This document shows positions 38,872 to 64,000 of a stretch of 64,000 nt of DNA, piece after piece (positions within the stretch are counted from its first letter, which is position 1; every line of letters starts with the position of its first letter). The stretch spans positions 1-64,000 of the forward strand of contig JBIJDH010000004.1 of NCBI GenBank assembly GCA_044344255.1. Reading direction: 5' to 3'. Below the pieces are notes generated by a model, which was not told the DNA's origin, did no database searches, and saw nothing but the letters and a program-made list of their open reading frames with translations. A program made the position numbers and the translations under genes. Origin of the DNA: Myxococcota bacterium. Lineage in GTDB: Bacteria; Myxococcota_A; UBA796; UBA2385.

Positions 38872-40989
38872 ATGGCGTCCCGTACGGCTGTCTCGACCCC
38901 CCCGACCATCCTCGAGCGCCTCCGCTCGCAGGGGGACGTTTACCTTGCAGGATCCCTGATCGCCTTCATGGCGATCATGGTGATCCCGCTCCCTGCGCCG
39001 GCCCTCGACATCCTGCTCTCGCTGTCGGTCTCGATGAGCCTGCTCGTGCTCCTCGTCACCTTGTATGTCAAAAATCCGGTTGAATTCACCGTCTTCCCGA
39101 TGGTGCTGCTGGCGACGACCCTCTTCCGGCTCGCGCTCAACGTGGCGACCACGCGGCTCATCTTGCTCAACGGATCGGAGGGGCCTGACGCCGCGGGTCA
39201 TGTGGTGCGCACCTTCGGAGAGGTCGTCGTCGGCGGCAGCTATGTGGTCGGCCTCGTCGTGTTTGCGATCCTCATCGTCATCAACTTCGTCGTCATCACG
39301 AAGGGCGCGGGGCGAATCGCCGAGGTGGCGGCGCGCTTCACCCTCGACGCGATGCCCGGCAAGCAGATGGCGGTCGACGCCGAGCTCAACGCAGGCCTGA
39401 TTGACGAAAAGGCGGCCAAGAAGAGGCGGGAGGGCATCGCTCGGGAGGCCGACTTCTACGGATCGATGGACGGCGCCAGCAAGTTCATCCGCGGCGACGC
39501 GGTCGCGGGCATCCTGATCACGCTCATCAACATCGTGGGCGGCATCATCATTGGCGTCGTTCAGAAAGACATGCCGCTGAAGGAGGCGGTCCAGGTCTAC
39601 ACCGTGCTCACCATCGGTGACGGTCTGTTGAGTCAGGTCCCCGCTTTGATCATCAGCGCGGCCGCCGGCATGCTGGTGACCCGAGTTCCCGACACCGACG
39701 AGCAGAGCCTCCCAGCGCAATTCGGCCACCAGCTCTTCGGCTCTCACCGAGCGCTCGCCATGCTCTCGGCCTCGTTGATGGGCTTCATGGCGCTCCCCGG
39801 GCTGCGCCTGCCCTTCTTCCTGCTCGCGGCGGTGGCGGCCTTTGGTGCTTGGCGCGGCTGGAAGGCCGATCAGGAGCCCAAGCCAAAGGTGGCTGAGCAG
39901 CTCGAGGGCGTGGCCGTCCCGGAGAAGGCGGGTGAGCCGCCGGTCGAGACGCTCCTCCGCGTCGAGCCGCTCGCCATCGAGCTCGGTGTCGATCTCATCG
40001 GCCTCGTGGACGAAAAGAAGGGTGGCAACCTCGTCGAGCGCATCCAGCGCATCCGCCGTCAGGTGGCGCAAGACACCGGCCTCCTCGTGCCGCCGGTGCA
40101 CCTCCGCGACAACCTTCGCCTCGAAGGCAGTGAGTATCGGGTCTTGCTCCGCGGCGAGGAGGTCGGCCGCGGCAAGGTCACCCCACGGCAGCTCCTGGCG
40201 ATCAACCCCGGCGACGCGAGCGGGAACCTCCGCGGCCATCGGACGCGTGATCCTGTCTTTGGCCTCGAGGCCCTCTGGATCTCGGAGAGCCTGCGCCAGA
40301 AGGCGCAGGAGGCGGGCTACACGGTGGTCGATGTGCCCACCGTGGTCACCACCCACCTCACTGAGGTTCTGAACCAGCACGGCCACGAGCTCTTCGGCAG
40401 GCAGCAGCTGGCCGACCTGCTGGACCGCATCCAGGTCGACAACCCGCGCCTCGTCGAGGAGCTGATCCCCGAGCCCCTGAGTCGCAGCGTTGTGCTCCGC
40501 GTATTCCGCAACCTCCTTCGTGAGGGGGTGGCCATCCGTGATGCGCAGAGCATCCTCGAGGCGATGGCCGATCACGCGCCGCGCGTTCGTGATGCCGATG
40601 CGCTCACCGAATTCGTGCGCCAGCGCCTCTCTCGCCACATCACCCGTCGCTACTCGGGTGAGGCGGGCGTGGTCAACTACATCGGCCTCGCCGCGGACGC
40701 TGAGGAGGCGCTCTCGAGCTCGGTGACCTCCGGGGAGGGCGGCGCGCTCAATCTCGCGCTCGACCCGGAAGACGCGCGGCGCCTCCTCATCAGCCTGCGG
40801 AACGTCTCGGAGCAGTGGCGGGGCTCGGCAGACCTCGTGCTGCTGGTGCCGCCGCTCGTTCGGGGGCCGCTTCGTCGCCTCACCGAGAAGCTCCTCCCGC
40901 GCGTGGCGGTGCTCTCTCCAGGCGAGCTCCTGCCCACCGTGCGCCTCGAGCGTGTGGCGGCTGTCTCCCTCAAGTCGGCGGGGGCTTGA
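38872..40989 (+). CDS. flhA: Flagellar export gate protein FlhA
   Basis: LFRLALNVATTRLIL, ITKGAGRIAEVAARFTLDAMPGKQM, EADFYGSMDGASKFIRGDA. Confidence 0.97.
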   Translation: MASRTAVSTPPTILERLRSQGDVYLAGSLIAFMAIMVIPLPAPALDILLSLSVSMSLLVLLVTLYVKNPVEFTVFPMVLLATTLFRLALNVATTRLILLNGSEGPDAAGHVVRTFGEVVVGGSYVVGLVVFAILIVINFVVITKGAGRIAEVAARFTLDAMPGKQMAVDAELNAGLIDEKAAKKRREGIAREADFYGSMDGASKFIRGDAVAGILITLINIVGGIIIGVVQKDMPLKEAVQVYTVLTIGDGLLSQVPALIISAAAGMLVTRVPDTDEQSLPAQFGHQLFGSHRALAMLSASLMGFMALPGLRLPFFLLAAVAAFGAWRGWKADQEPKPKVAEQLEGVAVPEKAGEPPVETLLRVEPLAIELGVDLIGLVDEKKGGNLVERIQRIRRQVAQDTGLLVPPVHLRDNLRLEGSEYRVLLRGEEVGRGKVTPRQLLAINPGDASGNLRGHRTRDPVFGLEALWISESLRQKAQEAGYTVVDVPTVVTTHLTEVLNQHGHELFGRQQLADLLDRIQVDNPRLVEELIPEPLSRSVVLRVFRNLLREGVAIRDAQSILEAMADHAPRVRDADALTEFVRQRLSRHITRRYSGEAGVVNYIGLAADAEEALSSSVTSGEGGALNLALDPEDARRLLISLRNVSEQWRGSADLVLLVPPLVRGPLRRLTEKLLPRVAVLSPGELLPTVRLERVAAVSLKSAGA

Positions 40990-40992
40990 GCT

Positions 40993-41937
40993 GTGGTGAC
41001 CAAGGGCGGCCACCATCGGGTCCGGGTGCGGGCGATGTACGCAGCCGCCGAGCCCAGCGCGGCGCCGGTGGCGGCGGACCGGGTCCCTGAGAGTGAAGAG
41101 CCGACCGCCCCCTTGGATCCCGTGAGCGTAGGTGTCTACGGACGCGCCGGCCGAGTGACTGAGGGCCGTCGGATCGAGGGATGCACCCGCGAAGAGATCT
41201 GCGAGAAGTACCGGGGCCGCATCCTCATCATCGCGCGGCGCGTGGGTGAGCGACTCCCCGCCAGCTGTGAGATCGAGACGGCCGACCTCGCGGGCTTCGG
41301 CGCCATCGGCCTCCTCGAGGCCTTCGACCGCTTCGACGCCGAGCGAACAATTCTCTTCTCAACGTACGCGGAGTACCGCATCCGCGGGGCGATGATGGAC
41401 GCGCTCCGTCAGAATGACGCCTTCAGCCGGCACCGTCGCCAGATGGCGCGCAAGGTGCAGCTGGCCTCCGCGGCGCTGTTGTCGGAGCTCGGCCGGCCTG
41501 CGCGCCCGGAGGAGGTCGCCGCGCGGCTCGAGGTCGATCTCGCGACCTACTGGTCGGTGGTAGACCGCACCCTCCCCGTCTCCTTCGTGAGCTTCGACGC
41601 CCAGTCTACCGAAGGAGATGACCACTCTCCGCCCTTGTTGGAGACCCTGCACGCCGGGGAAGGGCAGGAGGCGCTGCAGGCCTTGATGGGTCAGGACGCC
41701 CGTCGCCTGCTGAAGGAGGCGATACTGGCGCTTCCGGAGCGGAAGCGCCAATGTGTGCTGCTATACTACGGCCGCGGTCTCAGCCTCGCTGAGGTAGCGG
41801 CCGTGTTTGACCTGACGTCGGCGCGGATCTGCCAGATCCTCTCTGCGGCGCGGATTGATCTCCGCGCGGCCCTGGAGGGGAAGATCTCGGTCGAAGACCT
41901 CGACGGCATGGATATCGCCAAGGTGGAGTCCTCTTGA
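40993..41937 (+). CDS. fliA: Flagellar sigma factor sigma28 (FliA/WhiG) with an N-terminal extension
   Basis: GLLEAFDRFD...FSTYAEYRIRGAMMDALR; region 4 LPER...LYY..GLSLAEVA..F.LT..RICQI; start uncertain (40993/41035). Confidence 0.92.
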   Translation: MVTKGGHHRVRVRAMYAAAEPSAAPVAADRVPESEEPTAPLDPVSVGVYGRAGRVTEGRRIEGCTREEICEKYRGRILIIARRVGERLPASCEIETADLAGFGAIGLLEAFDRFDAERTILFSTYAEYRIRGAMMDALRQNDAFSRHRRQMARKVQLASAALLSELGRPARPEEVAARLEVDLATYWSVVDRTLPVSFVSFDAQSTEGDDHSPPLLETLHAGEGQEALQALMGQDARRLLKEAILALPERKRQCVLLYYGRGLSLAEVAAVFDLTSARICQILSAARIDLRAALEGKISVEDLDGMDIAKVESS

Positions 41938-42653
41938 GCCGCGACATTTTTCCTTCTCTCTCCGGGGCGATCGCCTCGGCTCGGCAGATCGAGCTGGTGG
42001 CCAACAACGTGGCCAACCAGTCTACGGTGGGCTTCAAGGCGCAGCGAGGCACCTTCGAGCAGGTCAACCGGAGCTTCGAGCCCCTGGCGAACAGCTACGT
42101 CAAGCTCTCCCCTGGGTACCCCGATCTCTCCGACGGTCCCCTCATCGAAGATGGGGGTGAGACCCACCTCGCCCTCCAAGGCCGCGGCTTCCTCGTGGTC
42201 GAAGGCGGGGAAGGGCAGGGAGGGCAGCTGCTCTGCCGTGGCGGCGCCCTCCGCCTTGACCGCGATGGCTTCCTGGTGACCGACCGCGGTGAGAAGGTGC
42301 TCGGGGAGTCCGGGCCCATCCAGGTGCCGGAGAACGAGCACATCACCGTCGATCAGGCGGGGAAGGTCTCGACGACCCGGGGGGATGAGCTCGCACAGCT
42401 CCGCCTCGTCGTCCCCTCCGGCCCGCCGGGGAGCGTCGAGGAGCTGGGCGGCACCCGCTGGCTGGCTCGCGCCGGCACTCGTCCGGCCACCGAGGTGGTC
42501 GTCGTGCAAGGGGCGCTCGAGGGCTCGAACACCAACCCCGTCAAAGAGATGGTCGATCTCATCCAGGCGACCCGCTACTTCGAGCTCTACCAGAAGGCGA
42601 TGCAGACCTCAGACGAGCTCGACGGACGTATGTATGCAACAGGGAGAGGCTGA
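41934..42653 (+). CDS. flgF: Flagellar basal-body rod protein FlgF
   Basis: ANNVANQSTVGFK, LALQGRGF, QGALEGSNTNPVKEMVDLI. Confidence 0.9.
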   Translation: MSRDIFPSLSGAIASARQIELVANNVANQSTVGFKAQRGTFEQVNRSFEPLANSYVKLSPGYPDLSDGPLIEDGGETHLALQGRGFLVVEGGEGQGGQLLCRGGALRLDRDGFLVTDRGEKVLGESGPIQVPENEHITVDQAGKVSTTRGDELAQLRLVVPSGPPGSVEELGGTRWLARAGTRPATEVVVVQGALEGSNTNPVKEMVDLIQATRYFELYQKAMQTSDELDGRMYATGRG

Positions 42654-43429
42654 TGCGCGCCCTTTATAGCGCTGCGACGGGCATGGCTGCCCAGCAGCTC
42701 AAGATCGATAACATCTCGAACAACCTCGCGAACGTCTCGACGACCGGCTACAAGAAAGCCCGCGAGTCCTTCGAAGACCTCGTCTACCAGAACATGCCCA
42801 TCGGGGGCGTCTCCAACGACACACCTCGGCCGGTCGGTATCCAAATCGGTACGGGTGTTCGGACCCTCGCCATCACCCGAGACTTCCGGAATGGCGACCA
42901 AGTCTACACCGGTAACCAGTTCGATGTGACGATCGGCGGCCGCGGGTTCTTCGTGCTCGAAGGCCCGAACGGTGAAGAGCGGTACACCCGAGACGGTCAC
43001 TTCATTAAGAACGCAGACGGGGAGCTGGTCACCGCCGCTGGCTACAAGATGTCGCCGGGAATAGAGGTCCCGGAGGATGCGATCGCTGTCATCATCTCCG
43101 AGGATGGCACGGTCCAGGCGCAGTACCAGGATCAAGTCGACCTCGCGACCCTCGGCGTGATCCAGCTCGTCGATTTCGTCAACCCTGCAGGCCTCCGCGC
43201 GGTGGGCGGCAATCTGTTCACGGTGAGCCCCGAGAGCGGTGAACCGCAGATCCTGGAGCCGGGAGACGGCTTCGTCAACCTGCAGCAGGGCTTCCTCGAG
43301 AACAGCAACGTCGACATCGCCGAGGAGCTGATCAACATGATCATCGCCCAGCGCGCCTTCGAGACGAACAGCAAGGTCATCGAGACCGAGGATCAGAACC
43401 TCCAGACCGTGAATCAGCTCAAGCGCTGA
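42653..43429 (+). CDS. flgG: Flagellar distal rod protein FlgG
   Basis: MRALYSAATGM.AQQ, SNNLANVSTTGYKK, FEDLVYQ, YTRDG, LENSNV..AEE. Confidence 0.96.
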   Translation: MRALYSAATGMAAQQLKIDNISNNLANVSTTGYKKARESFEDLVYQNMPIGGVSNDTPRPVGIQIGTGVRTLAITRDFRNGDQVYTGNQFDVTIGGRGFFVLEGPNGEERYTRDGHFIKNADGELVTAAGYKMSPGIEVPEDAIAVIISEDGTVQAQYQDQVDLATLGVIQLVDFVNPAGLRAVGGNLFTVSPESGEPQILEPGDGFVNLQQGFLENSNVDIAEELINMIIAQRAFETNSKVIETEDQNLQTVNQLKR

Positions 43430-43458: not shown

Positions 43459-44202
43459 ATGCAGCTCCCCATCCGCGATCCCCTGCTGCGTCAATCCATC
43501 CGGCCCATGGTGTGTGGGCTGGTGGGCGGCGCGCTGCTCTGTGGCGCGCCCGCATTCGGGGCCGTCTCGGTGGACGCCGTGTCGGCAGCCCTCCGAGCCG
43601 AGGTGGCGGCCCGCCTGGAGAAGGCCGAGTCGGACGTCGTGGTGGGCTTCCCCGGCCTCACGGCTCCCCTCGACTGCGCCGAGAGCTCTACCCTGCAGGT
43701 GCAGGCGTCGCCGGGTGAGCGCTTTCGGGGCCACCCGAACCTGCGCCTTCGGGTCACCGAGCCCGACGGTCGGGTCTGCGCCGACCTTCGGCTGCGGCCG
43801 GAGCTTCGCCTCTACGGGCAGGTGCCGGTCGCTGCGAACGCGGTCGGGGCGGGCGCGCCGGTGACGGTGCAGATGGAGCGTGTCGCCCTCGATCGGGTAG
43901 ACGGTGCGCTCATCCCCGTCGGAGATGCGCCCGAAGCGAGCGGCCCCTGGGAGGCACGTGGGCCCTTGCAGAGAGGGCAGCCGCTGACCCTCTCGCGTGT
44001 GCGGGCCACCCCGGCCGGGCGGCAGGGCGCTGAGGTGCTCCTCGTTGCCAGCTCAGGCCCCCTGCGGGTTCAGGCTGCGGGGCGGCTCCTCGACGACGTC
44101 GCGCTGGGTGGTGAGGTGCGTGTGACCAACCTCGCTACGGGGGTCGTCGTGAACGGTGTGCTGGTGGAGCCTGGCGTCGTCCGGGCTGGAGCGCGTCCAT
44201 GA
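43459..44202 (+). CDS. flgA: P-ring formation chaperone FlgA
   Basis: Signal peptide; C-terminal V.L.ASSG.L.V.A.G..L.D...G..VRV.N..TG; position between flgG and flgH. Confidence 0.82.
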   Translation: MQLPIRDPLLRQSIRPMVCGLVGGALLCGAPAFGAVSVDAVSAALRAEVAARLEKAESDVVVGFPGLTAPLDCAESSTLQVQASPGERFRGHPNLRLRVTEPDGRVCADLRLRPELRLYGQVPVAANAVGAGAPVTVQMERVALDRVDGALIPVGDAPEASGPWEARGPLQRGQPLTLSRVRATPAGRQGAEVLLVASSGPLRVQAAGRLLDDVALGGEVRVTNLATGVVVNGVLVEPGVVRAGARP

Positions 44203-44927
44203 AGTCCCCCTCAGCCGGCTCCCGAGTGGCGGGCGCCTCGGCGCCTACCCGTCGTGCCCTGGTCGTCCTCGTCCTCGTGCTCGGCCTGGGCACCTCTGAG
44301 AGCCTCGCGGCTCCGCCGGTCCCTCCCCCGGTGACAGCCCAGCCCACCTCGGTCGAGCCTTCGCCGCCAGGGAGCCTCTGGAACGAAGGGACGGCACGGA
44401 TCTTGATCGGGCTGGACTCCAACGCCCGGCGCACCGGCGACCTCATCACGGTGAACATCACCGAAGAGACCCGGACTGAGCTCCTCGCCAACACCGAGGC
44501 GAACCGCGAGTCCTCGGTGGGCGGCGGCATCGGCTCGCTGTTTGGGCTCGACAAGGGGGCCACCAAGGCTAACGACAACCTGGACGGGGAGCTGTCGCTG
44601 TCGGTCGAAGGCGGGTCCGCCTTTAAGGGCGATGGTAAGACCTCTCGCGAGGCCTCGGTTGTCGGGAAGCTCACCTGCAAGGTGATCGAGGTGCAACCCA
44701 ACGGGAACCTCGTGATCTGGGGCTGGAAGGAGGTCAGGGCCAACCGCGAGACTCAGTACATGGTGGTCTCGGGGACTGTCCGTCCGCAGGACATCAAGGC
44801 GGACAACACCGTGGACAGCCAGCTCCTCGCCGAGGCCCACATTGAATTCAACGGGAACGGCCCGCTCTCTGACAAGCAGGGCCCGGGGCTCGGTCAACGA
44901 GTGCTCGACCGCACCTGGCCCTTCTGA
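44199..44927 (+). CDS. flgH: Flagellar L-ring protein FlgH
   Basis: GSLW, ARRTGDLITVNITE, V.PNGNLVI.G.KEV..N.E.Q, SGTVRPQDI..DN, terminal WPF. Confidence 0.94.
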   Translation: MKSPSAGSRVAGASAPTRRALVVLVLVLGLGTSESLAAPPVPPPVTAQPTSVEPSPPGSLWNEGTARILIGLDSNARRTGDLITVNITEETRTELLANTEANRESSVGGGIGSLFGLDKGATKANDNLDGELSLSVEGGSAFKGDGKTSREASVVGKLTCKVIEVQPNGNLVIWGWKEVRANRETQYMVVSGTVRPQDIKADNTVDSQLLAEAHIEFNGNGPLSDKQGPGLGQRVLDRTWPF

Positions 44928-44935
44928 GGTCTCCC

Positions 44936-46102
44936 TTGATGGTCTGCCCTTCGCCTTCCACGCCGGCCCCGACCTCGCACTCCCGCGCGCGGCGGTTTGG
45001 CTTGGTTCGGGCCGCGCTGCTCCTGCTCTTCACGCTGCTGGCCCTCCGCGTCGCCCCCGCCGAGGCGGCCCGCGTCAAGGACATCGCGACCCTGTACGGG
45101 GTCCGTGACAACGTGCTCTCGGGGCAGGGCCTCGTGACCGGCCTGAACCGCTCCGGAGACTCTCGGCGAAACGAGGCAGCGATCCGGGCCCTCGCCAATA
45201 AGCTCCAGGGCCTGGGCTTTACGATCAGCACCGACGAGATCATCGCGCGGAACGTAGCGATCGTGATGGTGACCGCCCGAATGGCCGCGGATGCCCGGCC
45301 TGGAGCCGCCATCGATGTCGAGGTCAGCTCTTCGGGTGACGCCACGAGCCTCGAGGGCGGGGTGCTCCAACTCGCGGCCTTGTATGCCCCGAACGGTCAA
45401 GTGTTCGCCACAGCACAGGGTCCTCTCTTGGTGGGCGGCTTCCAGGTCGAGGCCGAGGGGAGCAGCACGCGGAAGAACCATCCCACGGTGGGCCGAATCC
45501 CGGAGGGGGCGATCGTGGAGCGGGAGAACCCGAACCGCCTCGACCTCGACATCCAGGAGAGGGTCGATTGGATCATCCACCAGCCCGATTTCACCACCAC
45601 CCTGCGTGTCGCGGACGCGATCAACCAGGCCTTTGGGGAGGACATCGCCAAACCGCGAGACCGAGGCAGCGTGAGCGTGCGGGTCCCCGAGCGCTACAAG
45701 GGTCGGGTGGTGGAGCTGGTCTCGCAGATCGAGTCGCTGACCGTGGCCGTCGATGCGACGGCCCGGGTGGTCGTCAACGAACGAACCGGCACGGTGGTCA
45801 TGGGGGCCGACGTCAAGATCTCTCCGGTCGCGATCGCCTACGGCGCGCTGTCGATCGAGGTCCAGCGCACCACGGACGTCAGCCAACCCGGCCCGCTCTC
45901 CGGCGGCAAGACGGTCAAGTCGAACAACGCGAACCTCGTGGTCAAGGAGGGGGACGGTGAGCTCGTGATGGTGGAAGGCATCAGCATCGGCGAGCTCGTG
46001 AAGGCCTTGAACAAGATCGGCGTGAAGCCGCGCGACCTGATCCAGATCCTGATGGCCATCAAGTCCGCCGGGGCCTTGCAGGCCGAGCTGGAGGTCCAGT
46101 GA
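44936..46102 (+). CDS. flgI: Flagellar P-ring protein FlgI
   Basis: RVKDIA...GVRDN.L.G.GLVTGL..SGD, NVAIVMVTA, GDATSLEGG.L, VNERTGTVV.G, AGALQAEL. Confidence 0.96.
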   Translation: MMVCPSPSTPAPTSHSRARRFGLVRAALLLLFTLLALRVAPAEAARVKDIATLYGVRDNVLSGQGLVTGLNRSGDSRRNEAAIRALANKLQGLGFTISTDEIIARNVAIVMVTARMAADARPGAAIDVEVSSSGDATSLEGGVLQLAALYAPNGQVFATAQGPLLVGGFQVEAEGSSTRKNHPTVGRIPEGAIVERENPNRLDLDIQERVDWIIHQPDFTTTLRVADAINQAFGEDIAKPRDRGSVSVRVPERYKGRVVELVSQIESLTVAVDATARVVVNERTGTVVMGADVKISPVAIAYGALSIEVQRTTDVSQPGPLSGGKTVKSNNANLVVKEGDGELVMVEGISIGELVKALNKIGVKPRDLIQILMAIKSAGALQAELEVQ

Positions 46103-46857
46103 GCGTCGATCCGTTGGGCGCCGCGCGCTCCGTGATCTCCGAGGCCCGCCTCGCCGCGATCGCGCCCCCCTCCGACACCTCGAAGGTGAGCGCGGAGACA
46201 GCCGCGCGCCAGTTTGAGGGCTACCTCGCGCAGCTGATGATTCGGGAGATGAAGAAGACTGTCCCAGAGGGGCTTTTCAATTCTCCGGCGATGGAGGTCT
46301 TTTCGGACCTCTTCGATGCCGAGATCGCGAACCGGATGAGCGAGGGTAGGGGGCTCGGGCTGGCAGCGCAGATCACCGCTCGGATCACCGGACAGCCCCT
46401 CCACGGCGCCGCCTCAGCCGGCCCGGAGACGAGCGCGGCCGCGACGACCGCCCGATCGCGCGGGAGCGGTGCGGTCATGCCGGTCATCGGCCGGTTGACC
46501 TCCCGATTCGGTCAGCGGGCCGACCCCTTCGACGGCACCCGACGGAGCCACCAGGGGGTAGACATCGCGGCCCCGCGCGGCGCGCCCGTGAGCCCCGTGA
46601 AGGCGGGCACGGTGACCATGGCGGGCCGCCGCAGCGGCTACGGCAACGTCGTCGTCGTCGATCACGGAGACGGGCTGACGACGCTCTACGCCCACTGTGA
46701 CTCGCTCTCCGTGCGCGCGGGGCAGCAGGTGCAGCCCGGCGATGTGATCGCTCAGGTGGGGGACACGGGGCGCGCGACCGGCCCCCATTTGCACTTCGAG
46801 GTGCGCTCCGACGGCGTGGCTGTCGACCCGATTGAGACATTCGGGTGGCGGCGTTGA
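46099..46857 (+). CDS. flgJ: FlgJ rod-capping domain fused to an M23 peptidase
   Basis: AARQFEGYL...M.REMKKTV...GLGLA rod-binding domain; HQGVD, YAH, TGPHLHFE M23 motifs. Confidence 0.88.
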   Translation: MSVDPLGAARSVISEARLAAIAPPSDTSKVSAETAARQFEGYLAQLMIREMKKTVPEGLFNSPAMEVFSDLFDAEIANRMSEGRGLGLAAQITARITGQPLHGAASAGPETSAAATTARSRGSGAVMPVIGRLTSRFGQRADPFDGTRRSHQGVDIAAPRGAPVSPVKAGTVTMAGRRSGYGNVVVVDHGDGLTTLYAHCDSLSVRAGQQVQPGDVIAQVGDTGRATGPHLHFEVRSDGVAVDPIETFGWRR

Positions 46858-46867
46858 GGCTCGTCCT

Positions 46868-46912: not shown

Positions 46913-47185
46913 ATGAAAATTGAACCCACCATAGTCGCGCGAGCTGCGTTGTCCGCCCGAGCCCTCGGGAAGGGTGCGCGGGTGAGCAGCGGGGCGGCCG
47001 CGGTAGACGCCGTCGCGCTGTCGGCGTCCGCGCGCTTTGTGAACGAGCTTCGGGACGCCGTAGAGAATACGCCGGGGGTCCGTGCCGACGTGGTCGAGCA
47101 GGCCCGCGCCGACATCGCGTCGGGTCGCCTTGGCGGAGAGCTTGACCTCAACTTGGCGCTGGACTCCTTGCTCGCAGGCTTCTGA
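46913..47185 (+). CDS. flgM: Anti-sigma28 factor FlgM
   Basis: MKI..., DAVALSASA, VRADVVEQARADIASG; size and position. Confidence 0.85.
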   Translation: MKIEPTIVARAALSARALGKGARVSSGAAAVDAVALSASARFVNELRDAVENTPGVRADVVEQARADIASGRLGGELDLNLALDSLLAGF

Positions 47186-55980: not shown

Positions 55981-56170
55981 TCGGGCGCGAAGCGCGACTT
56001 GAATGCATGTGGAGATGTCGCCCCAGGCTCTCCTCCGGGCGACCCGCCTGCGTTGAACTGTCGCCACATTTGTGTGCCGGTGAGGGGTGGAGGCTCGCAA
56101 CTGCGGCTCACAGGAGGTAGACTGGTCCGCTCCCAGGCGCGATCGCGGCGCTCGGGATCAAGGGTGGTGC

Positions 56171-56581
56171 TTGAGCTCCTTCCTCTTTGACAGGCTGCAC
56201 GTGGGCGTGGGGCAGGTGCTAGACCTTCGCTCTGCGCAAAACGCGTTCTCAGCCTCAAATCTAGCGAATGCGTACACGCCTGGCTTTCGGGCTCAGTACC
56301 TGCGTTTTGACCACATCTTGGCCGCGGCCGTGGGGCGGGAGGATGAGCTGGGGATGTCGAGGACCGACCCTCGGCATGTCGGCGGGCCGGACGAAGACCC
56401 CGGGCTGCTCCCCATCGAGACCGTCGAGCCCGCCCCCTGGGTCCTCGACGGCAACTCGGTGAACCCCGAGCAAGAGCAGGTGCGCTTGACCGAGAACGCG
56501 CTGCTGTATGATGCGGTCGCGGCCGGGCTCAGCCGGCGTATTAGTCTCCTTCGTTACGCCGCGTCTGACGGCCGGCACTGA
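56171..56581 (+). CDS. flgB: Flagellar rod protein FlgB
   Basis: LDLR, ASNLANAYTPGF, T...H, DGNSV..EQE; start uncertain (56087/56171). Confidence 0.9.
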   Translation: MSSFLFDRLHVGVGQVLDLRSAQNAFSASNLANAYTPGFRAQYLRFDHILAAAVGREDELGMSRTDPRHVGGPDEDPGLLPIETVEPAPWVLDGNSVNPEQEQVRLTENALLYDAVAAGLSRRISLLRYAASDGRH

Positions 56582-56592
56582 GAGGCGCTCGG

Positions 56593-57015
56593 ATGGGGCT
56601 CATCAACACCTTCGGCATCTCCGCCAGCGGGCTCGTCGCCCAGCGGGTCCGCCTCCAGACGGTCGCCAGCAACATGGCGAACGCCCGGACCACGCGCACC
56701 CCCGAGGGGGGGCCGTACGTGCGGCAGCTCCCAGTGCTTCAAGCGGTGAGCAACGACTTCGGCTCTGAGCTCGATCGAGAGCTGTCCCGGGTGGAGGTGG
56801 CCGACGTCGTAGACTCCACCGAGCCCTTCGTGCTGGTCTACGAGCCGGGGCACCCCGACGCCGATGCGTCGGGCTACGTCCGCTTTCCCAACGTCGACGT
56901 GCTGAAGGAGATGGTTGATCTGATGACCACTTCACGGACCTATGAGGCCAACACCAACGTGGTGGACGTCACGAAGCGGCTGGCGATGGCAGCCATCGAC
57001 ATCGGGAGGGGATGA
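56593..57015 (+). CDS. flgC: Flagellar rod protein FlgC
   Basis: ISASGL.AQRVRL..VASNMANA.TTRT..GGPY, YEPGHPDAD..GYV.FPNV, SRTYEAN. Confidence 0.96.
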   Translation: MGLINTFGISASGLVAQRVRLQTVASNMANARTTRTPEGGPYVRQLPVLQAVSNDFGSELDRELSRVEVADVVDSTEPFVLVYEPGHPDADASGYVRFPNVDVLKEMVDLMTTSRTYEANTNVVDVTKRLAMAAIDIGRG

Positions 57016-57317
57016 TGTCTCCAATCCAGGGCGTCAGCCCTATCGTTTCTCCGTTCGCTGTCGGGAGCCCCCTCGCAGTGGAGCGCGGCGCCCGCGGGGC
57101 CAGCTTCGCAGTCCAGCTCGAGTCGGCGGTGGACACGGTCTCGTTGAAGGCCAACGCGGCTGACGATGCCGTCGCGGCCTTGGCCGCGGGGGAAGACGTC
57201 GACATTCACACGTCGATGATCGCCCTCTCGGAGGCCGAGGTCACCTTGAAGATGATGGTGGCCGTCCGTGACCGTGCCGTCGAGGCCTACCAGCATATCA
57301 TGAACATGCAGATATGA
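57012..57317 (+). CDS. fliE: Hook-basal body protein FliE
   Basis: DIHTSMIA..EAEV.L..M.AVRDR.VEAYQ.IMNMQI. Confidence 0.94.
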   Translation: MMSPIQGVSPIVSPFAVGSPLAVERGARGASFAVQLESAVDTVSLKANAADDAVAALAAGEDVDIHTSMIALSEAEVTLKMMVAVRDRAVEAYQHIMNMQI

Positions 57318-57462
57318 CCGGGCGGGATGGGGGCGCGGGGGTGTCGTTCGATGGACCCTGCGCTGCGTGCTGTCGGTGACAGATTGATGGTGTAGGCTCT
57401 CTTTTTGTCCGTCTCGGTCGTTGTTAGGGTCTCGTCATCCGCGTATTTTGAGGCTGCTCGTC

Positions 57463-59112
57463 TTGGCCAGCGCGATTGAACAGTTTCGTGCGTACTACGC
57501 CGGTTTGCAGCCCGGCCAACGCGGCGTCTTGCTCGGCGCAGCGCTGCTCTCCATTGCCTCGCTGGTCGGCGTGGGGTGGTGGAGCTGGGGAGACCGGTAC
57601 GAGGTCGTTTATTCGGCGAACGATCCCCTCGACGTCCAAGAGGTGGTGTCGGCCCTCGAGACCCAGAACATCCCCTTCCGGATCGTCGAGAGCGGGCGCG
57701 CCATCGAGGTCCTCCCCGAGGATCTGGGCCGCGCGCGCATCGCCGGTGCCGCCGCGGGGAAGGTTCTGGGCTTCGAGGTGCTCGACAGCATCGAGCTCGG
57801 CAGCTCGCCCCAGCGGGAGCGGTGGGCCTTCCAGCGGGCGCTCCAAGGTGAGCTGGTGCGCACCATCAGCGCCCTGGATCAGGTGGAGTGGGCCAGGGTC
57901 CACCTCGCGCTCCCCGATCGCACCGCCTTCCTCCGGGATGAGACGCCCCCTTCGGCGAGCATCACGGTCAAGCTGCGACCGGGCGCGGTGCTCAGCGCCG
58001 CGGAGGTCCGCGGGATCACGGCCCTGGTCTCGGGCGCCGTCGATGGGCTGCACTCCAATGATGTCGTCCTGGTCAACCAAGACGGGGCCCTCCTGTCGGG
58101 CGGTGACGAGGAGGCCGCGGAGGCGGCGCTCGGCGGCGGTCCGGCCCTTATGGGCCTGCGCACCACCGAGGAGAAGCGCACACGGAACGCGATCCGGGAC
58201 GCCCTCACCCGCGTCCTCGGCTCGCCGGACGACATCACGGTCGGAGTCACGGTCGATGTCGCCGCCTCTTCGATCGACCAGTTCACGCGCAGCAAGGATC
58301 CAGACAGCCAGGTGCTGATCTCGGAGACGATCCGGGAGCAGTCGGGTGAGTCGGTCAAGCCGGGCGGGATCCCAGGCACCGCGAGCAACCTCCCCGAGCA
58401 GGGCGGCTCCTCGGCGGCCACCTCGAAGGAGTCGCTGCAGGAGCAGCGGTCGAACTTCGACTACACCACGGTCGAGACCCGCGAGCAGTCCTCAGCCGGC
58501 GCCGTGAAGCGGCTCAGCATCGGCGTCTTCGTCAATTCAGACCGCATCGTCGCCCTCGCCACCGCCGTCGCCACCGCGGCGAACGCGGGCAAGGCGCCGG
58601 ACGCCGCCGCGATCCAGGCCCAGATCGACGCGATTCAGAAGCAGGTCGAGGACACCGTGCGCGTCGCGGCTGGCTACAACAAGGAGCGCGGCGACAGCGT
58701 TCAGGTCAGCTTCGTCCCCTTCTCGGCCACCGCCGACGTCGGCTCGACGCCCTCCGAGGAGCCCGCCGCGCTGGTGGCGCTCGAGCGCTACCTGCCCTAC
58801 CTCATCGTCCTCGTCGCCATGGCGCTCCTGTTCTGGTTCGTGATTCGGCCCCTCGTGGGCGCCGTGACGCGGGCTTCGGGCGGCGGCGGCCTCCAAGCCT
58901 TGGAGGCGGGGGCGATCGGCCTCGATGGACGACGGATCCTGGACGGCCCAGGCGCCGCCCGCACCGACGCGGCGGGGCGCAACCTCACGGAGCGCCTCCG
59001 CGCCATGGTAGACAACTTCGAGACGGTGGACGCTGCCGATCTCAACCGTCTGGTCGATCTGGAGCAGGAAGCCACCGCTCAAGTCCTCCGGCGGTGGATC
59101 CGCGAGAGCTGA
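57463..59112 (+). CDS. fliF: MS-ring protein FliF
   Basis: GFE.LD, RALQGELVRTI, ARVHLALP, PSASITVKL, LVSGAVDGL...V..V.Q.G, PGTASN, RLSIGV; two TMs; start uncertain (57421/57463). Confidence 0.94.
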   Translation: MASAIEQFRAYYAGLQPGQRGVLLGAALLSIASLVGVGWWSWGDRYEVVYSANDPLDVQEVVSALETQNIPFRIVESGRAIEVLPEDLGRARIAGAAAGKVLGFEVLDSIELGSSPQRERWAFQRALQGELVRTISALDQVEWARVHLALPDRTAFLRDETPPSASITVKLRPGAVLSAAEVRGITALVSGAVDGLHSNDVVLVNQDGALLSGGDEEAAEAALGGGPALMGLRTTEEKRTRNAIRDALTRVLGSPDDITVGVTVDVAASSIDQFTRSKDPDSQVLISETIREQSGESVKPGGIPGTASNLPEQGGSSAATSKESLQEQRSNFDYTTVETREQSSAGAVKRLSIGVFVNSDRIVALATAVATAANAGKAPDAAAIQAQIDAIQKQVEDTVRVAAGYNKERGDSVQVSFVPFSATADVGSTPSEEPAALVALERYLPYLIVLVAMALLFWFVIRPLVGAVTRASGGGGLQALEAGAIGLDGRRILDGPGAARTDAAGRNLTERLRAMVDNFETVDAADLNRLVDLEQEATAQVLRRWIRES

Positions 59113-59124
59113 GGATTACGGTCG

Positions 59125-60141
59125 ATGGCGCAGGCGAACAATCAGGAGACCCAGCTCAGCGGCGCGGAGCGCGCGGCGATCCTCGTGATGTACCTCGACC
59201 GCGAGATCGCGAAGGGGCTGCTGCGCTCGCTCGATGACGAGGAGGTCCGCTCGGTCGGGCTCGCGATGGGGCGGATTGAGTCGGTGGAGCCGGCGCTGAT
59301 CGAGCGGGTCATCGGCGAGTTCGTCAAGGATCTCCACGAGGTCAGCGTCATGCCGAAGTCCGGCGCAGACTTCGTGGCCCAGGTGCTGCCTGAGCTGCTC
59401 GACGACGAACGGAAGCGCGACCTCATCCCGATGATCCACCGTCGCACCAACCGCGACTTCGAGCAGTTCATCACAGCCCGGCAGCCCTCCAGCGTAGCGG
59501 CGCTGCTGAAGGATGAGCTGCCCCAGACCCAGGCGGTGGCGCTCTGCCTGATGGGCCCCGACAACGCGGCCCGGGTCCTGAAATTCCTCCCCGAGGAGGA
59601 CCGCAATAAGATCACCGTGCGGATGGCGCGGCTGAAGCGCATCCCCGGCGAGCTGGCCGACGACGTGATCGCGGCCCTGCGGGCGGCCCTCGGCAAGCAA
59701 GCCGACCACCTCGACGTGGGCGGCGTCGATCGCACAGCCCGGATCCTCGGCAAGATGACCCGGGTGGAGAAGGGCAAGATCCTCGAGGGGGTCTCCGAGC
59801 GGGAGCCCGATCTCGCCGACGCCCTCCGCCGCCGGATGATCGTCTTCGAGGATCTCTCCCAGCTCACGAACATGGCCATCCAGGTCGTGCTCAAGAACGT
59901 CGATCGCGACGACCTCGTCGCCGCGCTGAAGGGCGCCAAGCCCGAGATGCAGGACTTCTTCCTCGCTGCCGTGTCGAGCCGCGCCGCCCAGGACATCCGC
60001 GAGGAGATGGAGCTGCCGCTCCCCGTGGCCAAGTCTCGCGTACGCACCGCCCAGGAGCGCATCGTCGCGGCTGCGCTCAAGCTGGCCGAGGAGGGCGCCA
60101 TCTTCTTGCCGATGGGCGCCGATGACGATGAGCCTGAGTAG
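59125..60141 (+). CDS. fliG: C-ring rotor protein FliG
   Basis: LSGAERAAIL, E.PQT.A..L, GG...A.IL, M.VFEDL, SSRAA..I.EEME, AQ..IV. Confidence 0.93.
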   Translation: MAQANNQETQLSGAERAAILVMYLDREIAKGLLRSLDDEEVRSVGLAMGRIESVEPALIERVIGEFVKDLHEVSVMPKSGADFVAQVLPELLDDERKRDLIPMIHRRTNRDFEQFITARQPSSVAALLKDELPQTQAVALCLMGPDNAARVLKFLPEEDRNKITVRMARLKRIPGELADDVIAALRAALGKQADHLDVGGVDRTARILGKMTRVEKGKILEGVSEREPDLADALRRRMIVFEDLSQLTNMAIQVVLKNVDRDDLVAALKGAKPEMQDFFLAAVSSRAAQDIREEMELPLPVAKSRVRTAQERIVAAALKLAEEGAIFLPMGADDDEPE

Positions 60142-60167: not shown

Positions 60168-60881
60168 GTGGCTGATCCCTTCGTCCCCTTCCGGAAGCAC
60201 GCCGGCTTCACCTCGACGCCCATCCCTTCGGGCCCGGCGGTGGACGTGGTGGTGCCGATCCGCGCCGACACCCGGCTGGAGATCCGACCGCTCCCGCGTC
60301 ATGACAAGACCCCCGAGGTCACCGCCCCACCGCCGCCGCCGCCTGGCCCTACCAAGGAGGAGGTGGCCCGGATGGTCGCCGCTGCCGAGGAGAAGGCTCG
60401 GCGGGCCGCCCAGCTTGAGGTCGACCAGATCAAGCGGTCCGCCGCCGAAGATCGCGCGCGGCTCGCGCTGATCGGCGATCAGGTCGCCGGGCTCCAGCTG
60501 GCCCTCGCCACCGAGGCGCGCGCCGAGATGGGGGAGCTCCTGATCCGCGCGGTCGAGCGACTCGTCGGCTCCGTGCCCGAGCTCCTCGCTGCGATGGTGC
60601 GCACGCGCTGTGGAGAGGTGGCGCAGCAGCTCGTCAGCGCGCGGCAGGTCGTGGTTCGGGTCCACCCCGACGACGTCGCGCTCGCCCAGGAGGCGCTCGG
60701 CCGCCGGGACGGCTGGCGGGTGGAAGGCGATCCCACGATCCGAGGCGGCTGCGTGGCCGAGACGGACAACGGACTGGTGGACGCCAGCCTCGACGCCGCG
60801 ATGGAGGCCCTCACCCAATCCGTGCTCTCCTGGCAGGCCGAGGTCGGCGCGGAGCCTGCGCGGAGAGAGGGGGGCCCTTGA
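60168..60881 (+). CDS. fliH: Flagellar export regulator FliH
   Basis: VRVHPDD, D.TI.GGC.AETDNG.VDASL; position. Confidence 0.88.
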   Translation: MADPFVPFRKHAGFTSTPIPSGPAVDVVVPIRADTRLEIRPLPRHDKTPEVTAPPPPPPGPTKEEVARMVAAAEEKARRAAQLEVDQIKRSAAEDRARLALIGDQVAGLQLALATEARAEMGELLIRAVERLVGSVPELLAAMVRTRCGEVAQQLVSARQVVVRVHPDDVALAQEALGRRDGWRVEGDPTIRGGCVAETDNGLVDASLDAAMEALTQSVLSWQAEVGAEPARREGGP

Positions 60882-62278
60882 GCCTCTCCATCGGGCTCGA
60901 TCGGCTCGGCGGTTGGATCGACCAGCCGGCGCTCATCAAGCGCCGTGGCCGCGTCGTGCAGGTGATCGGGGGCGTGATCGAGGCCGACCTCCCAGGAGTG
61001 GCGGTGGGCGAGCTGACGCTCATCGGGCGTACACAAGCGGAGGTCATCGGCTTTCGAGAGCAGCGTGCGCTGCTGATGCCGCTCGGCTCGATGGAGGGCG
61101 TGGCCCACGGCACCGCGGTGGACGTGCAGAGCCGCCTGCTCCAGGTGCCGGTCGGCCCGGGGCTCCTCGGCCGCGTGGTGGATCCCCTCGGCCAGCCCCT
61201 CGACGGGCGCCCCCTGTCGAACGTCCCTCTGCGCCGTGGCCTCGACGGTCGCGCCCCCGATCCGATGCTCCGATCGCTCATTGAGCGCCCGCTGCTCACC
61301 GGGCTGCGGGTGATCGACGGCATGCTCACCCTCGGAGAGGGGCAGCGGATGTGCGTCCTCGCCGGCTCGGGCGTGGGAAAGTCGACCCTGATGGGGATGT
61401 TTGCCCGGAACAGCCAGGCCGAGGTGAACGTCGTCGCCCTCATCGGCGAGCGTGGGCGGGAGGTGCGGGAATTCCTGGAGCGGGATCTCGGGCCAGAGGG
61501 CCTCTCCCGCTCGGTCGTGGTGGTGGCCACCAGCGACTCCTCGCCGGTGTTGCAGGTCAAGACGCTCTTCTCCGCGCTGGCGATCGCCGAGCACTTCCGC
61601 GACGAGGGGCGGAAGGTGCTGCTGATGGTCGACAGCCTGACCCGCCTCGCGATGGCCCAGCGGCAGATCGGCCTCTCCGCGGGCGAGCCGCCGACCACCC
61701 GAGGCTACACGCCGAGCGTCTTCACGCTGATGCCTCGCCTGCTCGAGCGGGCCGGGCCGGGCGCGGGAAAGGGCAGCATCACGGGGATCTTCACCGTGCT
61801 GGTGGAGGGCGAAGACATGGACGACCCCGTCGCCGACACGGTGCGCGGTATCGTCGACGGGCACATCGTCCTGTCCAGAAAGCTGGCTAGTCATGGGCAT
61901 TATCCGCCGATTGACGTGCTCCCGAGCGTGAGCCGGACCATGCCCTCGACGGTCGGGGCCGACCAGATGGCCTGGGCCTCTCGCATTCGTGCCCTGATGG
62001 CCACGTACCGGGAGAACGAGGAGCTCATCCGGCTGGCGGCCTACAAGCGGGGCTCGGACGGGGAGGTGGACGCGGCCATCGACGCCAACGGAAAGATCAA
62101 CGCGTTCCTGCGTCAAGCGGTCGCCGAGAGCTGCGAGCTACCGGTCACGCTGCGGATGATGGAGGAGATCGCGGTGGGCGCGAGCCGCGGCGGCCCAGCG
62201 CCGGGCGCAGGAGCCGGCCGACCGGCCCCCCCCGTAAAAGGCGTGCGCCGCGCGACTCCGGACGTGCGGAAGACGTAG
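60878..62278 (+). CDS. fliI: Flagellar export ATPase FliI
   Basis: AGSGVGKST, LIGERGREVREF, DSLTR.A.AQR.IGL..GEPP..RGY, DGHIVLSR. Confidence 0.97.
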   Translation: MSLSIGLDRLGGWIDQPALIKRRGRVVQVIGGVIEADLPGVAVGELTLIGRTQAEVIGFREQRALLMPLGSMEGVAHGTAVDVQSRLLQVPVGPGLLGRVVDPLGQPLDGRPLSNVPLRRGLDGRAPDPMLRSLIERPLLTGLRVIDGMLTLGEGQRMCVLAGSGVGKSTLMGMFARNSQAEVNVVALIGERGREVREFLERDLGPEGLSRSVVVVATSDSSPVLQVKTLFSALAIAEHFRDEGRKVLLMVDSLTRLAMAQRQIGLSAGEPPTTRGYTPSVFTLMPRLLERAGPGAGKGSITGIFTVLVEGEDMDDPVADTVRGIVDGHIVLSRKLASHGHYPPIDVLPSVSRTMPSTVGADQMAWASRIRALMATYRENEELIRLAAYKRGSDGEVDAAIDANGKINAFLRQAVAESCELPVTLRMMEEIAVGASRGGPAPGAGAGRPAPPVKGVRRATPDVRKT

Positions 62279-62369
62279 TTTCGTGTGAGAATGGCCACGC
62301 TCTGAGGGGACCTGCTCCGCGCGGTTCCTGCGGTCGAGAGCGCCAAGGGAGGTTTTGTTGAGCGAGGTC

Positions 62370-62780
62370 ATGTCGACGCTCTCGCGCGTCCGTGAGATCC
62401 AAAAGAAGGTCTCGAAGCAGGCCTTTGCCTCGGCGGAGCGGTCACGGATCCTCCAAGAGGAGGCGGTAGACCAGCTCCAGGGGCACATCCTCCGCTCCCA
62501 CTCGGCCACCCCGAAGCCCGAGGCGTGGATGGTGGGCTGCGAGCACCGCTTCCGCGGGAAGCTGCGAGGGGATCTTGTGACGGAGCAGTCGGAGCTCCAT
62601 AGCCGCACGGAGGTGGTCGCCCAGCGCCGCTCCGAGCTGCAGGAGGCCAGCCGAGAGGCCCGCGTGGTCGAGCTCGCGATGGAGGCCCACCAGGAGATGG
62701 AGACGCTGTTCGAGCGAAGGGCCGACAACAAGCGGATCGATGACATGGCGGCGGTGCGTTGGTGGAGGGCCCAGGCATGA
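62370..62780 (+). CDS. fliJ: FliJ-like export protein
   Basis: L.RVRE N-terminus, coiled coil, K.IDDMA near C-terminus; follows fliI. Confidence 0.72.
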   Translation: MSTLSRVREIQKKVSKQAFASAERSRILQEEAVDQLQGHILRSHSATPKPEAWMVGCEHRFRGKLRGDLVTEQSELHSRTEVVAQRRSELQEASREARVVELAMEAHQEMETLFERRADNKRIDDMAAVRWWRAQA

Positions 62781-63331
62781 CGACGCGCTCGCGCTGGTCC
62801 GTCCTCGGGTTGATGCTGGGGGCCGCGGTGGGCCTCGGGGTCTCCTCGGTGGGCGCTCAGGAGGCCGCGTTCGGCCAGAGCGCCGAAGACGCCGTTCGGC
62901 CGTCCCCCGAAGCCGGCCGAGAGCAGGTCATGGCGCTGCTCGTCCGCAAGGAGAGCGATCTCGACCGGCGGGAGGCCACCCTCCTCGCCCGTGAGCAAGA
63001 CCTTCGAGCCGCGGAGGAGCAGGTCGGAAAGCGCCTCTCCGAGCTGCAGACCCTCCGGGATGACATCCGGGGCATGCTCACTGGCCTGGATGAGGAGCGC
63101 ACCGCGCGGGTGATGGGCCTCGTGAAGATGTTCGAGAGCATGCGGGCCGCGCAGGCCGCGGCGATCCTCGAGAAGACCGACGCCGACATCGCGCTCGCCG
63201 TGCTCTCGCGGATGAACAAGGGCAAGGCCGGCAAGGCGCTGGCGGCGATGACACCGGAGAAGGCTGCCTACTTCGCGGAGCGCCTGGGCGGGCCGGCCCT
63301 CTCCAGCGCCAAGCGCGCGGCGCCCCCGTGA
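62777..63331 (+). CDS. MotE/FlgY/YlxF-like periplasmic motor accessory protein (MgtE_N-like repeat)
   Basis: Signal peptide, coiled coil, LVKMFESM...AAAILE, L..M...KAGK.LAAM.PEKAA. Confidence 0.82.
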   Translation: MTTRSRWSVLGLMLGAAVGLGVSSVGAQEAAFGQSAEDAVRPSPEAGREQVMALLVRKESDLDRREATLLAREQDLRAAEEQVGKRLSELQTLRDDIRGMLTGLDEERTARVMGLVKMFESMRAAQAAAILEKTDADIALAVLSRMNKGKAGKALAAMTPEKAAYFAERLGGPALSSAKRAAPP

Positions 63332-64000
63332 TCGGCCTCGTGCTGTCGCAGGCGGTCGGGGTCCGGTTGGATCAGCCGCGCCCCTCCGTTATCGGCGCTC
63401 CTCTCGGCTTTGAAGGAGCGCTGGCCGAGGCGGTGCAGGGGGAGAGCTCCTCTCCCTCCGCCGCCCCCCTTGCGGGGGGGGCCGAAGGAGAGAGCCCGGT
63501 GGCGGGGAGCGGGAGCCGTGAGGGCCGGCCCCCCGCCGCGAGGACCAAGGGGCCGAGGTCTCCCCTCGAAACTGGAGGCGCCTCGCTCCCGCCGCCGACC
63601 TTCGCGCAGCTGCTGGCGGCTCAGGGCCACCTCGAGCCGCTCGAGCTGGAGCGTGTCGGCGGGGCGCGCTTCGAACGGGGGCCCGCGCCTCAGGGGGCCT
63701 TCGAGGCCCTCCTGGAGGGGGCGGACGGCGAGGCGCCCCCCGGCCCGTTCGCCGTCGATGGGCCTGCGATCGTCGTCGGCGTGGGCCTGGGAGCGGGACC
63801 GATGCTCGCCGGGCCTCCGCCTCTCGGCGCCGAGCGTGAGCGCTCGCCGGTCACTTCGGGGCGCCTCCGCGTCCCCGCCCGTGGAATGGACGCCGCGGCG
63901 GGGAGGGCCACGACGGATGGGCTCGGCGTCGAGGCCGCTCCGCAGGCGACGGTGGCCGCCCGGTTGGACTCGCCGCGCTCGATCCCGTGGGCGGCCCAGT
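63328..64000 (+). CDS. fliK: Probable hook-length control protein FliK, N-terminal part (truncated by window end)
   Basis: Frame from GTG 63328 (GTGA overlap) stays open to 64000; Pro/Gly/Ala low complexity with an FAQLL motif; expected position after fliJ-motE; diagnostic C-terminal domain not visible. Confidence 0.55.
   Translation, partial: MIGLVLSQAVGVRLDQPRPSVIGAPLGFEGALAEAVQGESSSPSAAPLAGGAEGESPVAGSGSREGRPPAARTKGPRSPLETGGASLPPPTFAQLLAAQGHLEPLELERVGGARFERGPAPQGAFEALLEGADGEAPPGPFAVDGPAIVVGVGLGAGPMLAGPPPLGAERERSPVTSGRLRVPARGMDAAAGRATTDGLGVEAAPQATVAARLDSPRSIPWAAQ

Follow-up and report, generated by a model that had tools for sequence, protein, structure and literature searches.

Anaeromyxobacter dehalogenans 2CP-C carries a 55.7-kb flagellar cluster that has been argued to be ancestral, and swimming has been seen in strain K (PMC2330069; this and the other papers given by PMC or DOI identifier are drawn on in excerpt). 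The locus described here resembles that cluster in being one large locus with a deltaproteobacterial gene order in a myxobacterial relative, and it resembles the loci of Desulfuromonadia and Desulfobulbia, such as those of Geothermobacter (L032) and Desulfotalea (L033), in following their blocks flgD-flgE-motAB-fliL-fliM-fliN-fliOPQR-flhB and flhA-fliA-flgFG-flgAHIJ-flgK. It lies in the first 64 kb (hereafter the window, 64,000 nucleotides) of the 490-kb contig C59 of an uncultured Myxococcota genome, G000; throughout, C-numbers denote contigs, L-numbers named loci and other G-numbers compared genomes. We consider it probable that this locus encodes a complete, vertically inherited flagellum, likely driven by protons through an acquired MotAB, and likely without chemotactic steering, since its FliM lacks the CheY-docking N-terminus and chemoreceptor, CheA and CheW genes were not found.

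From the flhA start codon (ATG at 38872) to the end of the window run 28 co-oriented, open flagellar frames, in the order flhA, fliA, flgF, flgG, flgA, flgH, flgI, flgJ, flgM, flgN, flgK, flgL, fliC, fliD, fliS, fliT, ORF237, TPR, flgB, flgC, fliE, fliF, fliG, fliH, fliI, fliJ, flgY-like and fliK, where the names flgN, fliT and fliK rest on position and conservation. A further 11 genes beyond the window bring the total to 39 over 36 kb of C59, the last being flhB, which ends at C59:75044. Open frames are there for the rod, hook, L and P rings, junction, flagellin, cap and MS ring, for FliG/M/N, the export gate and the ATPase complex, and for sigma28 with FlgM, and no frameshift was seen in the flagellar frames, as a first-pass annotation of the window had proposed for more than 25 genes. 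That annotation had also placed the MS/C ring in the window, which holds for FliF and FliG, but not for fliM and fliN, and had expected the remaining core genes downstream: flgD, flgE, fliL, fliM, fliN, fliP, fliQ, fliR and flhB are indeed found on C59, whereas motAB stands alone on contig C18. Against TIGR01398, FlhA reaches 817.8 bits (cut-off 772.1), while it falls below the cut-off of SctV, so the system is flagellar and not an injectisome.

Loss of the CheY dock and apparent absence of chemotaxis genes

The FliM N-terminus bears the CheY-binding motif LSQxEIDxLL (PMC5677366). In G000, fliM (C59:69579-70448, beyond the window) is N-terminally truncated: its start comes about 35 residues late, four codons after an in-frame stop, and the match of the protein to TIGR01397 starts from position 48. 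The motif is missing in all 33 FliMs read from the order (30 of 30 order loci and three more), as against named FliMs from outside, 26 of 34 of which carry it by regular expression and 31 of 34 once reading by eye is included. Sister orders keep it in 5/5 read (four clear, one partly shown) and other classes in 20/22 by regular expression or eye, although both counts come from the best-scoring 30 of 58 matches and are biased towards canonical forms. The distant loci among the FlhA-search matches listed served as outgroups and as FliM controls. Both FliMs of family f18 lack the N-terminus; other FliM matches (f14, f31, f36, f55) begin late in the model and may also be without the N-terminus.

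Searches for MCPs, CheW and the CheA dimerisation domain returned nothing in G000, each time with 8 of 14 control genomes positive. A relative from the same family, G007, has a che block of CheA, W, R, B, D, Y and X, against which G000 offers generic receivers only and no orthologues; tblastn of its CheA, CheW, CheR, CheB-methylesterase, CheD and CheX against G000 gave no hits. The flanks of this block map to an assembled stretch of C59 (about 236-248 kb), where transhydrogenase-like genes and another open reading frame (ORF) stand instead. Among the 26 receiver-like ORFs of G000 there is no CheY-like single receiver. More widely, CheW was not found in 13/30 flgI-positive genomes of the order, 4/10 of sister orders and 10/80 of other classes, and MCPs were not found in 20 of the 39 flhA-positive relatives (15/27 among those at least 90% complete).

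The genes flhF and flhG appear to have gone as well: the flhF model stays under its cut-off in G000, with only partial GTPase-domain matches, and the best G000 match for flhG is MinD, over TIGR01968. FliW was not found in G000. FlhG binds the same N-terminal motif of FliM as CheY does. In Shewanella and Geobacillus, FliM is a binding partner of FlhG (PMC7226244), so that a joint loss of FlhG and of the FliM N-terminus is coherent.

Replacement of the stator

Four relatives (G010, G002, G005 and G019) carry motAB between flgE and fliL; in G000, flgE abuts fliL, with no motAB between them, in the segment of flgD, TIGR02530, flgE and fliL just beyond the window (C59:66028-69484). A PomA-like MotA is present in 29 relatives, with Vibrio PomA (8bri, E 3e-57) as its best PDB match. 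T158, T185 and T186 make up the Na+ site, and positions 158 and 185 become alanines in H+ stators (PMC10374538); all three threonines are kept in 29/29 of the PomA-like MotAs. No PomA-type gene was found in G000. Its sole MotA, in the motAB pair at C18:542474-544383, belongs to TIGR03818 MotA1 (345 bits, cut-off 303.8) and has A, G and T at 158, 185 and 186, so that it departs from the Na+-site threonine pattern and has the non-threonine residues at 158 and 185 of H+-type MotA1. The accompanying MotB has plug and OmpA domains, with MotB as its best NCBIfam match, under the cut-off.

Judged by these residues and by its place in the MotA tree, the C18 pair is likely an acquired proton-type stator. 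The C18 MotA is 76% identical to that of G003, where the same swap is seen, and 59% identical to that of the second pair of G013, a genome which holds both stators, the old PomA-type and the MotA1-type. The MotAs of these three genomes form a clade (0.998) nested among proteins labelled Desulfobacterota or Nitrospirota. A different MotA with the H+ pattern occurs in eight further relatives, and the tree, which includes four of these, groups the four in a clade of their own; 10 genomes without the ancestral stator carry another MotA, acquired at least twice. With the queries used, G040 and G053 gave no MotA match. The gene nqrA is present in 20/29 Na-type genomes vs 1/10 H-type-only ones (Fisher p 0.002, a value overstated because kin are not independent); it was not found in G003 or in G000, the latter being without Na+-NQR.

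Two further observations concern the rotor and the wider MotA family. After its torque helix, the FliG of G000 (59125-60141) reads ELPLPVAK, where four old-stator relatives have (E/D)IMGPVP(R/K), a sequence difference that could possibly be an adjustment of the rotor to the new stator. MotA-like paralogs on G019:C57, G019:C112, G012:C356, G017:C51 and G002:C261 are 29-34% identical and have all three threonines; they lie away from the flagellar locus, and no MotB plug motif was seen beside them.

Inheritance and spread in the Myxococcota

The G000 assembly comprises 8.18 Mb in 83 contigs at 71.2% GC, is 95.2% complete and 2.0% contaminated, and no 16S gene was found in it. The RpoB region of G271, a genome of the same phylum but another class (family f14), is 92-93% identical to Sorangium/Polyangium, which identifies the phylum as Myxococcota and the class as other than Polyangia, in agreement with the Myxococcota-type lineage proposed at first pass. 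In the RpoB tree, from which 9 of the 80 genomes are missing (G003 and G013 among them), the class and the order of G000 are each a fully supported clade; the deep nodes are weak and the phylum is not resolved as a single clade. The class may be UBA796, a name which no search returned and at which the NCBI labels of RpoB neighbours and 24 MopE-like ORFs in the genome hint. A preprint on an earlier GTDB release placed UBA796 in Myxococcota_A. The habitat of G000 is read from the sequencing runs that contain its fliC region: lake and freshwater metagenomes (14 DNA rows) and 6 RNA rows.

Since the FlhA tree mirrors that of RpoB, we take the locus to be vertically inherited, as the first-pass annotation had supposed in preferring inheritance to recent transfer. 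The FlhA tree (103 sequences) recovers the class and the order, each with support of 1.0, and most families; leaving aside G040, whose RpoB falls outside its order, and G032, which is partial and on a long branch, FlhA and RpoB patristic distances correlate at r 0.85 over 30 class members and 0.91 over 40 Myxococcota. Gene order is identical in four family relatives, and the left edge of the locus is bridged by a DNA contig of an independent study (36001-39311), so that contig C59 is not a chimera at this point. Ratios of non-synonymous to synonymous substitution (dN/dS) against G019 and G002 range from 0.04 to 0.78, below 1 in all 34 pairwise values, which is weak evidence because dS is saturated. 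One candidate reference, L040 ('uncultured Myxococcota'), was dropped, as it groups with Desulfotalea in both trees; L040 and G040:C65 are likely cases of bin contamination or mislabelling.

The gene fliA lies less than 1.5 kb from flhA in 30/33 loci of the order and flhB that close in 0/33, while flhB adjoins flhA in 8/10 sister-order and 10/12 other-class loci. The earlier idea of two deltaproteobacterial blocks joined into one is better replaced by a Desulfuromonadia-type order that was cut between flhB and flhA and permuted, with loss of flhF-flhG.

Nor is a flagellated myxobacterial relative as exceptional as had been thought, the Anaeromyxobacter cluster being published and flgI being present in 120/301 of the Myxococcota genomes sampled, including 10/23 of the Polyangiaceae-like family f14; flhA is present in 39/61 genomes of the order sample. 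The share of 120/301 may be an overstatement, since the gliding marker CglB exceeds its cut-off in 0/301 phylum genomes and Myxococcaceae-type gliders seemingly fall outside the sample. With about 40% of sampled species genomes keeping flagellar genes that are inherited along the species tree, the cultured gliders likely lost their flagella. In published work, flagellar assembly genes are reported in Polyangia metagenome-assembled genomes (10.1101/2021.07.06.451402), flagellin and pilin transcripts among 35 such genomes of Bdellovibrionota and Myxococcota (PMC11937823, in the supplement of which 'flagell' and 'fliC' do not occur), and Myxococcota are named among motile phyla (10.64898/2026.06.16.732483). 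In family f14 (e.g. G174:C190, G157:C70, G234 and G303), the FlhAs form a clade beside families that are also its RpoB neighbours; going by these sequences, the Sorangium family seems to have kept its flagella.

Genes of the locus

All features of the window described here lie on the + strand. The export gate gene flhA (38872..40989) is directly followed by fliA, encoding sigma28 (40993..41937; TIGR02479, E 1.5e-51), with no flhF or flhG between. Profile matches identify the rod genes flgF and flgG (41934..43429) and flgA, flgH and flgI for the P-ring chaperone and the L and P rings (43459..46102). The next gene is a flgJ variant (46099..46857) in which the rod-binding domain is fused to an M23 peptidase (Pfam Rod-binding and Peptidase_M23); an M23 endopeptidase in place of the muramidase is kept in relatives. 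There follow flgM (Pfam E 9.9e-7) with a small chaperone candidate in the flgN position (46913..47514), the latter kept in the clusters of 6/7 relatives and with a weak FliT match in one homolog, and the junction genes flgK and flgL (47511..49774), over their TIGR cut-offs.

A short flagellin, fliC (49920..50759), has a profile match, is covered by RNA contigs in 3/3 RNA runs and is preceded by a sigma28-type promoter with two mismatches (49839..49865). A second flagellin, 70% identical to it, is an orphan gene at C14:203768-204601, with a sigma28-like site before it as read by eye. Between flgL and fliD, the G010 cluster (L112) is missing a flagellin, which may lie elsewhere, and the G002 cluster (L115) has only a short one, 32% identical. 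In the window, fliD and fliS (50891..52641, profile matches) are followed by a small helical ORF in the fliT position (52638..52942, start approximate), which has 29-34% identical matches in the clusters of 3/7 relatives and no convincing family match in profile searches.

Past two genes taken up below, the locus continues with flgB, flgC and fliE (56087..57317, over cut-offs), fliF for the MS ring and fliG (57421..60141), and fliH, fliI and fliJ for the export ATPase complex (60168..62780), the last two groups by profile matches. At the window's end stands a low-complexity ORF in the fliK position (63328..64000 for the 5' part within the window, running on to C59:65988); its fliK-like C-terminal domain is kept in relatives, and one homolog has a weak Flg_hook match. 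Beyond flgD to fliM, the locus closes with fliN, fliO, fliP, fliQ, fliR and flhB (C59:70580-75044).

To the left of the locus, a gene for a GH3-family acyl-amido synthetase adjoins one for a family 2 glycosyltransferase (33688-36587); 14 kb past the flagellar locus lies a block resembling type II secretion or type IV pilus genes (C59:89450-101984, by ORF translations only). Elsewhere in G000, two Roadblock (MglB-like) genes adjoin each other at C15:194578-195412, and a crude regular expression found neither MglA nor CsrA motifs in the genome.

Promoters, composition and transcripts

Intact sigma28 promoters had been claimed at first pass, and this is clear before fliC, where the one site found with at most two mismatches, against 0.24 expected in 38 kb, is the sole such site in the cluster; the flgM site, read by eye, is weak, and the exact consensus has no match in the window. 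No sigma54 motif was seen in the cluster. We infer that sigma28 and FlgM control flagellin.

RNA runs from three freshwater studies (n=3) yield contigs over fliC at depths of 101, 52 and 32, with patches of other flagellar genes, and nearly nothing at 36001-38001; the DNA run is flat at 30-42, and gaps in the RNA over parts of the cluster are uninformative. In two of the studies the contigs start at 49889 and 49892, just 3' of the fliC promoter, which is a weak hint. The RNA contigs support transcription but rank no genes, because the runs were picked via the fliC region and may hold DNA.

Candidate periplasmic scaffold genes

The two genes passed over above lie between the fliT position and flgB. 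The first (ORF237, 53016..53729) is predicted to encode an outer-membrane β-barrel, with Atlas features at 0.97 to OMP_b-brl clusters and structure matches at TM-scores of 0.6-0.75; it lies directly upstream of the second and occurs in the clusters of 6/7 relatives, across families of the order. This protein is possibly an uncharacterised motor accessory.

The second (53767..55980) encodes 737 amino acids with a signal peptide, and its predicted model (pLDDT 75) folds as AMIN plus TPRs, making it a candidate for a PflA-like periplasmic spoke. An AMIN-TPR gene near flagellar genes is the architecture of PflA and is described as widespread (10.1101/2025.02.19.638559), and this periplasmic arrangement is what we find here. 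The N-domain compares with the AMIN domains of PilQ and AmiC at Z 7.4 and 7.3 (root-mean-square deviation 2.9 and 2.8, 88 aligned), and the full-length model ranks the Campylobacter jejuni motor scaffold 9hmf_K third among generic TPR proteins, at a TM-score of 0.30. Its Atlas neighbours are TPR proteins of Campylobacterota and Desulfobacterota; a sequence search of the PDB returned generic TPR matches only and did not hit PflA. Towards the end of the window, an MgtE_N/FlbB-like protein (62759..63331; MgtE_N E 3.2e-5, collar_FlbB E 3.4e-6), kept in relatives, is a candidate for FlgY of the E-ring. The FlgY- and PflA-like proteins would together build a periplasmic scaffold. With these genes kept, the motor is not simply streamlined, as had been suggested; that description suits its control parts, which are lost.

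Discussion

In the reading we favour, the acquired MotAB would dock on the native FliG, and the motor would keep one default direction, perhaps with stops. Undirected runs through lake water could then help the cells to disperse or to meet prey, and in the absence of FlhF and FlhG the flagellum may sit elsewhere than at the pole. A loss of sodium energetics during a move to fresh water likely went along with the stator swap. Several points weigh against this picture. The evidence consists of genes and RNA contigs, so that rotation and swimming are only predicted; RNA libraries can contain DNA, the runs were picked via the fliC region, and genes cannot be ranked by contig depth. MCPs are kept in 19 of the 39 flagellated relatives (up to 11), including the nearest one, G003, with 6, and the MCP-bearing relatives checked share the truncated FliM; in this order, CheY might act via FliN or via the core of FliM. 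Gene absences are not proven from an assembly that is 95% complete in 83 contigs. G000 has four PilZ-domain proteins, which makes control of the motor by cyclic di-GMP possible. The gene nqrA is missing in 9/29 of the Na-type genomes, and the PflA match is structurally weak (TM-score 0.30, Z below 8).

Some of these points would suit a non-canonical steering, in which FliN, FliG, the core of FliM or the stator is the target of a receiver or cyclic di-GMP effector and cells stop, start or reverse on cues; we regard this as unlikely, if worth keeping in view. Relatives with full che clusters do share the truncated FliM, and G000 has its PilZ-domain proteins and receiver-like ORFs. CheY at high activity can act on motors without the FliM N-terminus. 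However, CheA, CheW and MCPs were not found in G000, and its PilZ matches sit in long frames (596-1007 amino acids) away from the locus. Moreover, CheY of Pseudoalteromonas showed no interaction with the FliM of the lateral system (PMC10304486). That the organism is a normal chemotactic swimmer and its che genes were left out in binning seems to us improbable, for all that the assembly is fragmented and incomplete and the sister genome G003 has its MCP matches: the MCPs of relatives are spread over several contigs, and every one would have to be missing, the stretch of C59 syntenic with the che block is assembled and does not contain it, the well-assembled flagellated relatives lack detectable MCPs in 15 of 27 cases, and the FliM deletion is independent of assembly.

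We give equally little credence to a flagellum used mainly for attachment, prey contact or secretion, with little or no rotation, and with the C18 MotAB perhaps powering something else. The stator of the locus is gone, as are the steering parts, and flagellar export systems have been put to new uses in Myxococcota before (PMC3459982); yet a replacement MotA in 10 genomes, acquired at least twice, implies selection for rotation, and the locus retains hook, rings, filament, cap and FliL, all 34 pairwise dN/dS values being below 1, albeit at saturated dS. That the cluster was recently imported by horizontal transfer, or that the contig is a chimera, is scarcely credible. The cluster does have a GC content of 68.6%, 1.6 points under the 70.2% of its contig (71.2% for the genome), but the gene order shared by four family relatives, the congruence of FlhA with RpoB and the independent DNA contig across 36001-39311 speak against it, and the last two refute it.

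Beyond the single genome, we tentatively entertain, whilst stopping short of thinking it probable, that in the whole uncultured order the flagellum lost its link to chemotaxis as far back as the common ancestor, and that its lineages have repeatedly swapped Na+ for imported H+ stators with loss of Na+-NQR and are blind-running planktonic hunters. This extension draws on the lost FliM dock, the missing flhF and flhG, and the roughly half of species without chemoreceptors. If true, the order would be a natural series of engine transplants in the flagellar motor. The order offers natural counterparts of Na+- and H+-type stators matched on one rotor, together with an intermediate, which makes stator-rotor compatibility and ion switching from salt to fresh water testable in strains kept in the laboratory, and a sole flagellum seemingly uncoupled from chemotaxis bears on the value of swimming without steering. 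The picture also moves from one odd swimmer to the retention of flagella at the level of the phylum.

Comparison with known systems

A swimming myxobacterial relative is already known in kind from Anaeromyxobacter; the order-wide loss of steering together with the stator swap is the new part. The literature covered, outside which lie most subscription journals and preprint supplements, describes for Myxococcota neither a truncated FliM nor a loss of chemotaxis nor a replaced stator. The Anaeromyxobacter cluster, as far as the excerpt describes it (PMC2330069), embeds motAB and a chemotaxis block, whereas the G000 locus, from another class, is without both and has a truncated FliM. In Geothermobacter and Desulfotalea, flhA-flhF-flhG come after flhB and the N-terminal helix of FliM is present; in G000 this link is cut, flhFG are gone, the FliM N-terminus is deleted and motAB is replaced. 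The PomA-type MotA of Desulfuromonadia and Desulfobulbia groups with the ancestral stator of G000's relatives.

With the myxococcal non-flagellar type III secretion system (PMC3459982), the locus shares a phylum and a flagellum-derived export apparatus; that system is described in the excerpt as without FlgBCDEK, FliEG, FlgH and MotAB, all of which G000 has. One AMIN-TPR gene and an MgtE_N-type gene among flagellar genes recall the E-ring and spokes of FlgY and PflA (10.1101/2025.02.19.638559), as excerpted; in G000 a PflB or cage partner was not identified, and a β-barrel gene lies directly upstream of the AMIN-TPR gene.

The lateral flagella of some Gammaproteobacteria, finally, accompany a chemotactic polar flagellum as a second system, whereas that of G000 is the sole flagellar system found (single flhA). 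They are not known to have FlhF or FlhG and use a proton stator. The FliM of the secondary flagellum of Shewanella is reportedly without the CheY motif. The lateral flagella of Vibrio, Shewanella and Pseudoalteromonas rotate one way (PMC10304486, PMC7226244), as we predict for G000. In a tree that held no Laf sequence, the FlhA of G000 groups with Myxococcota, and its likeness to the lateral systems is convergent.

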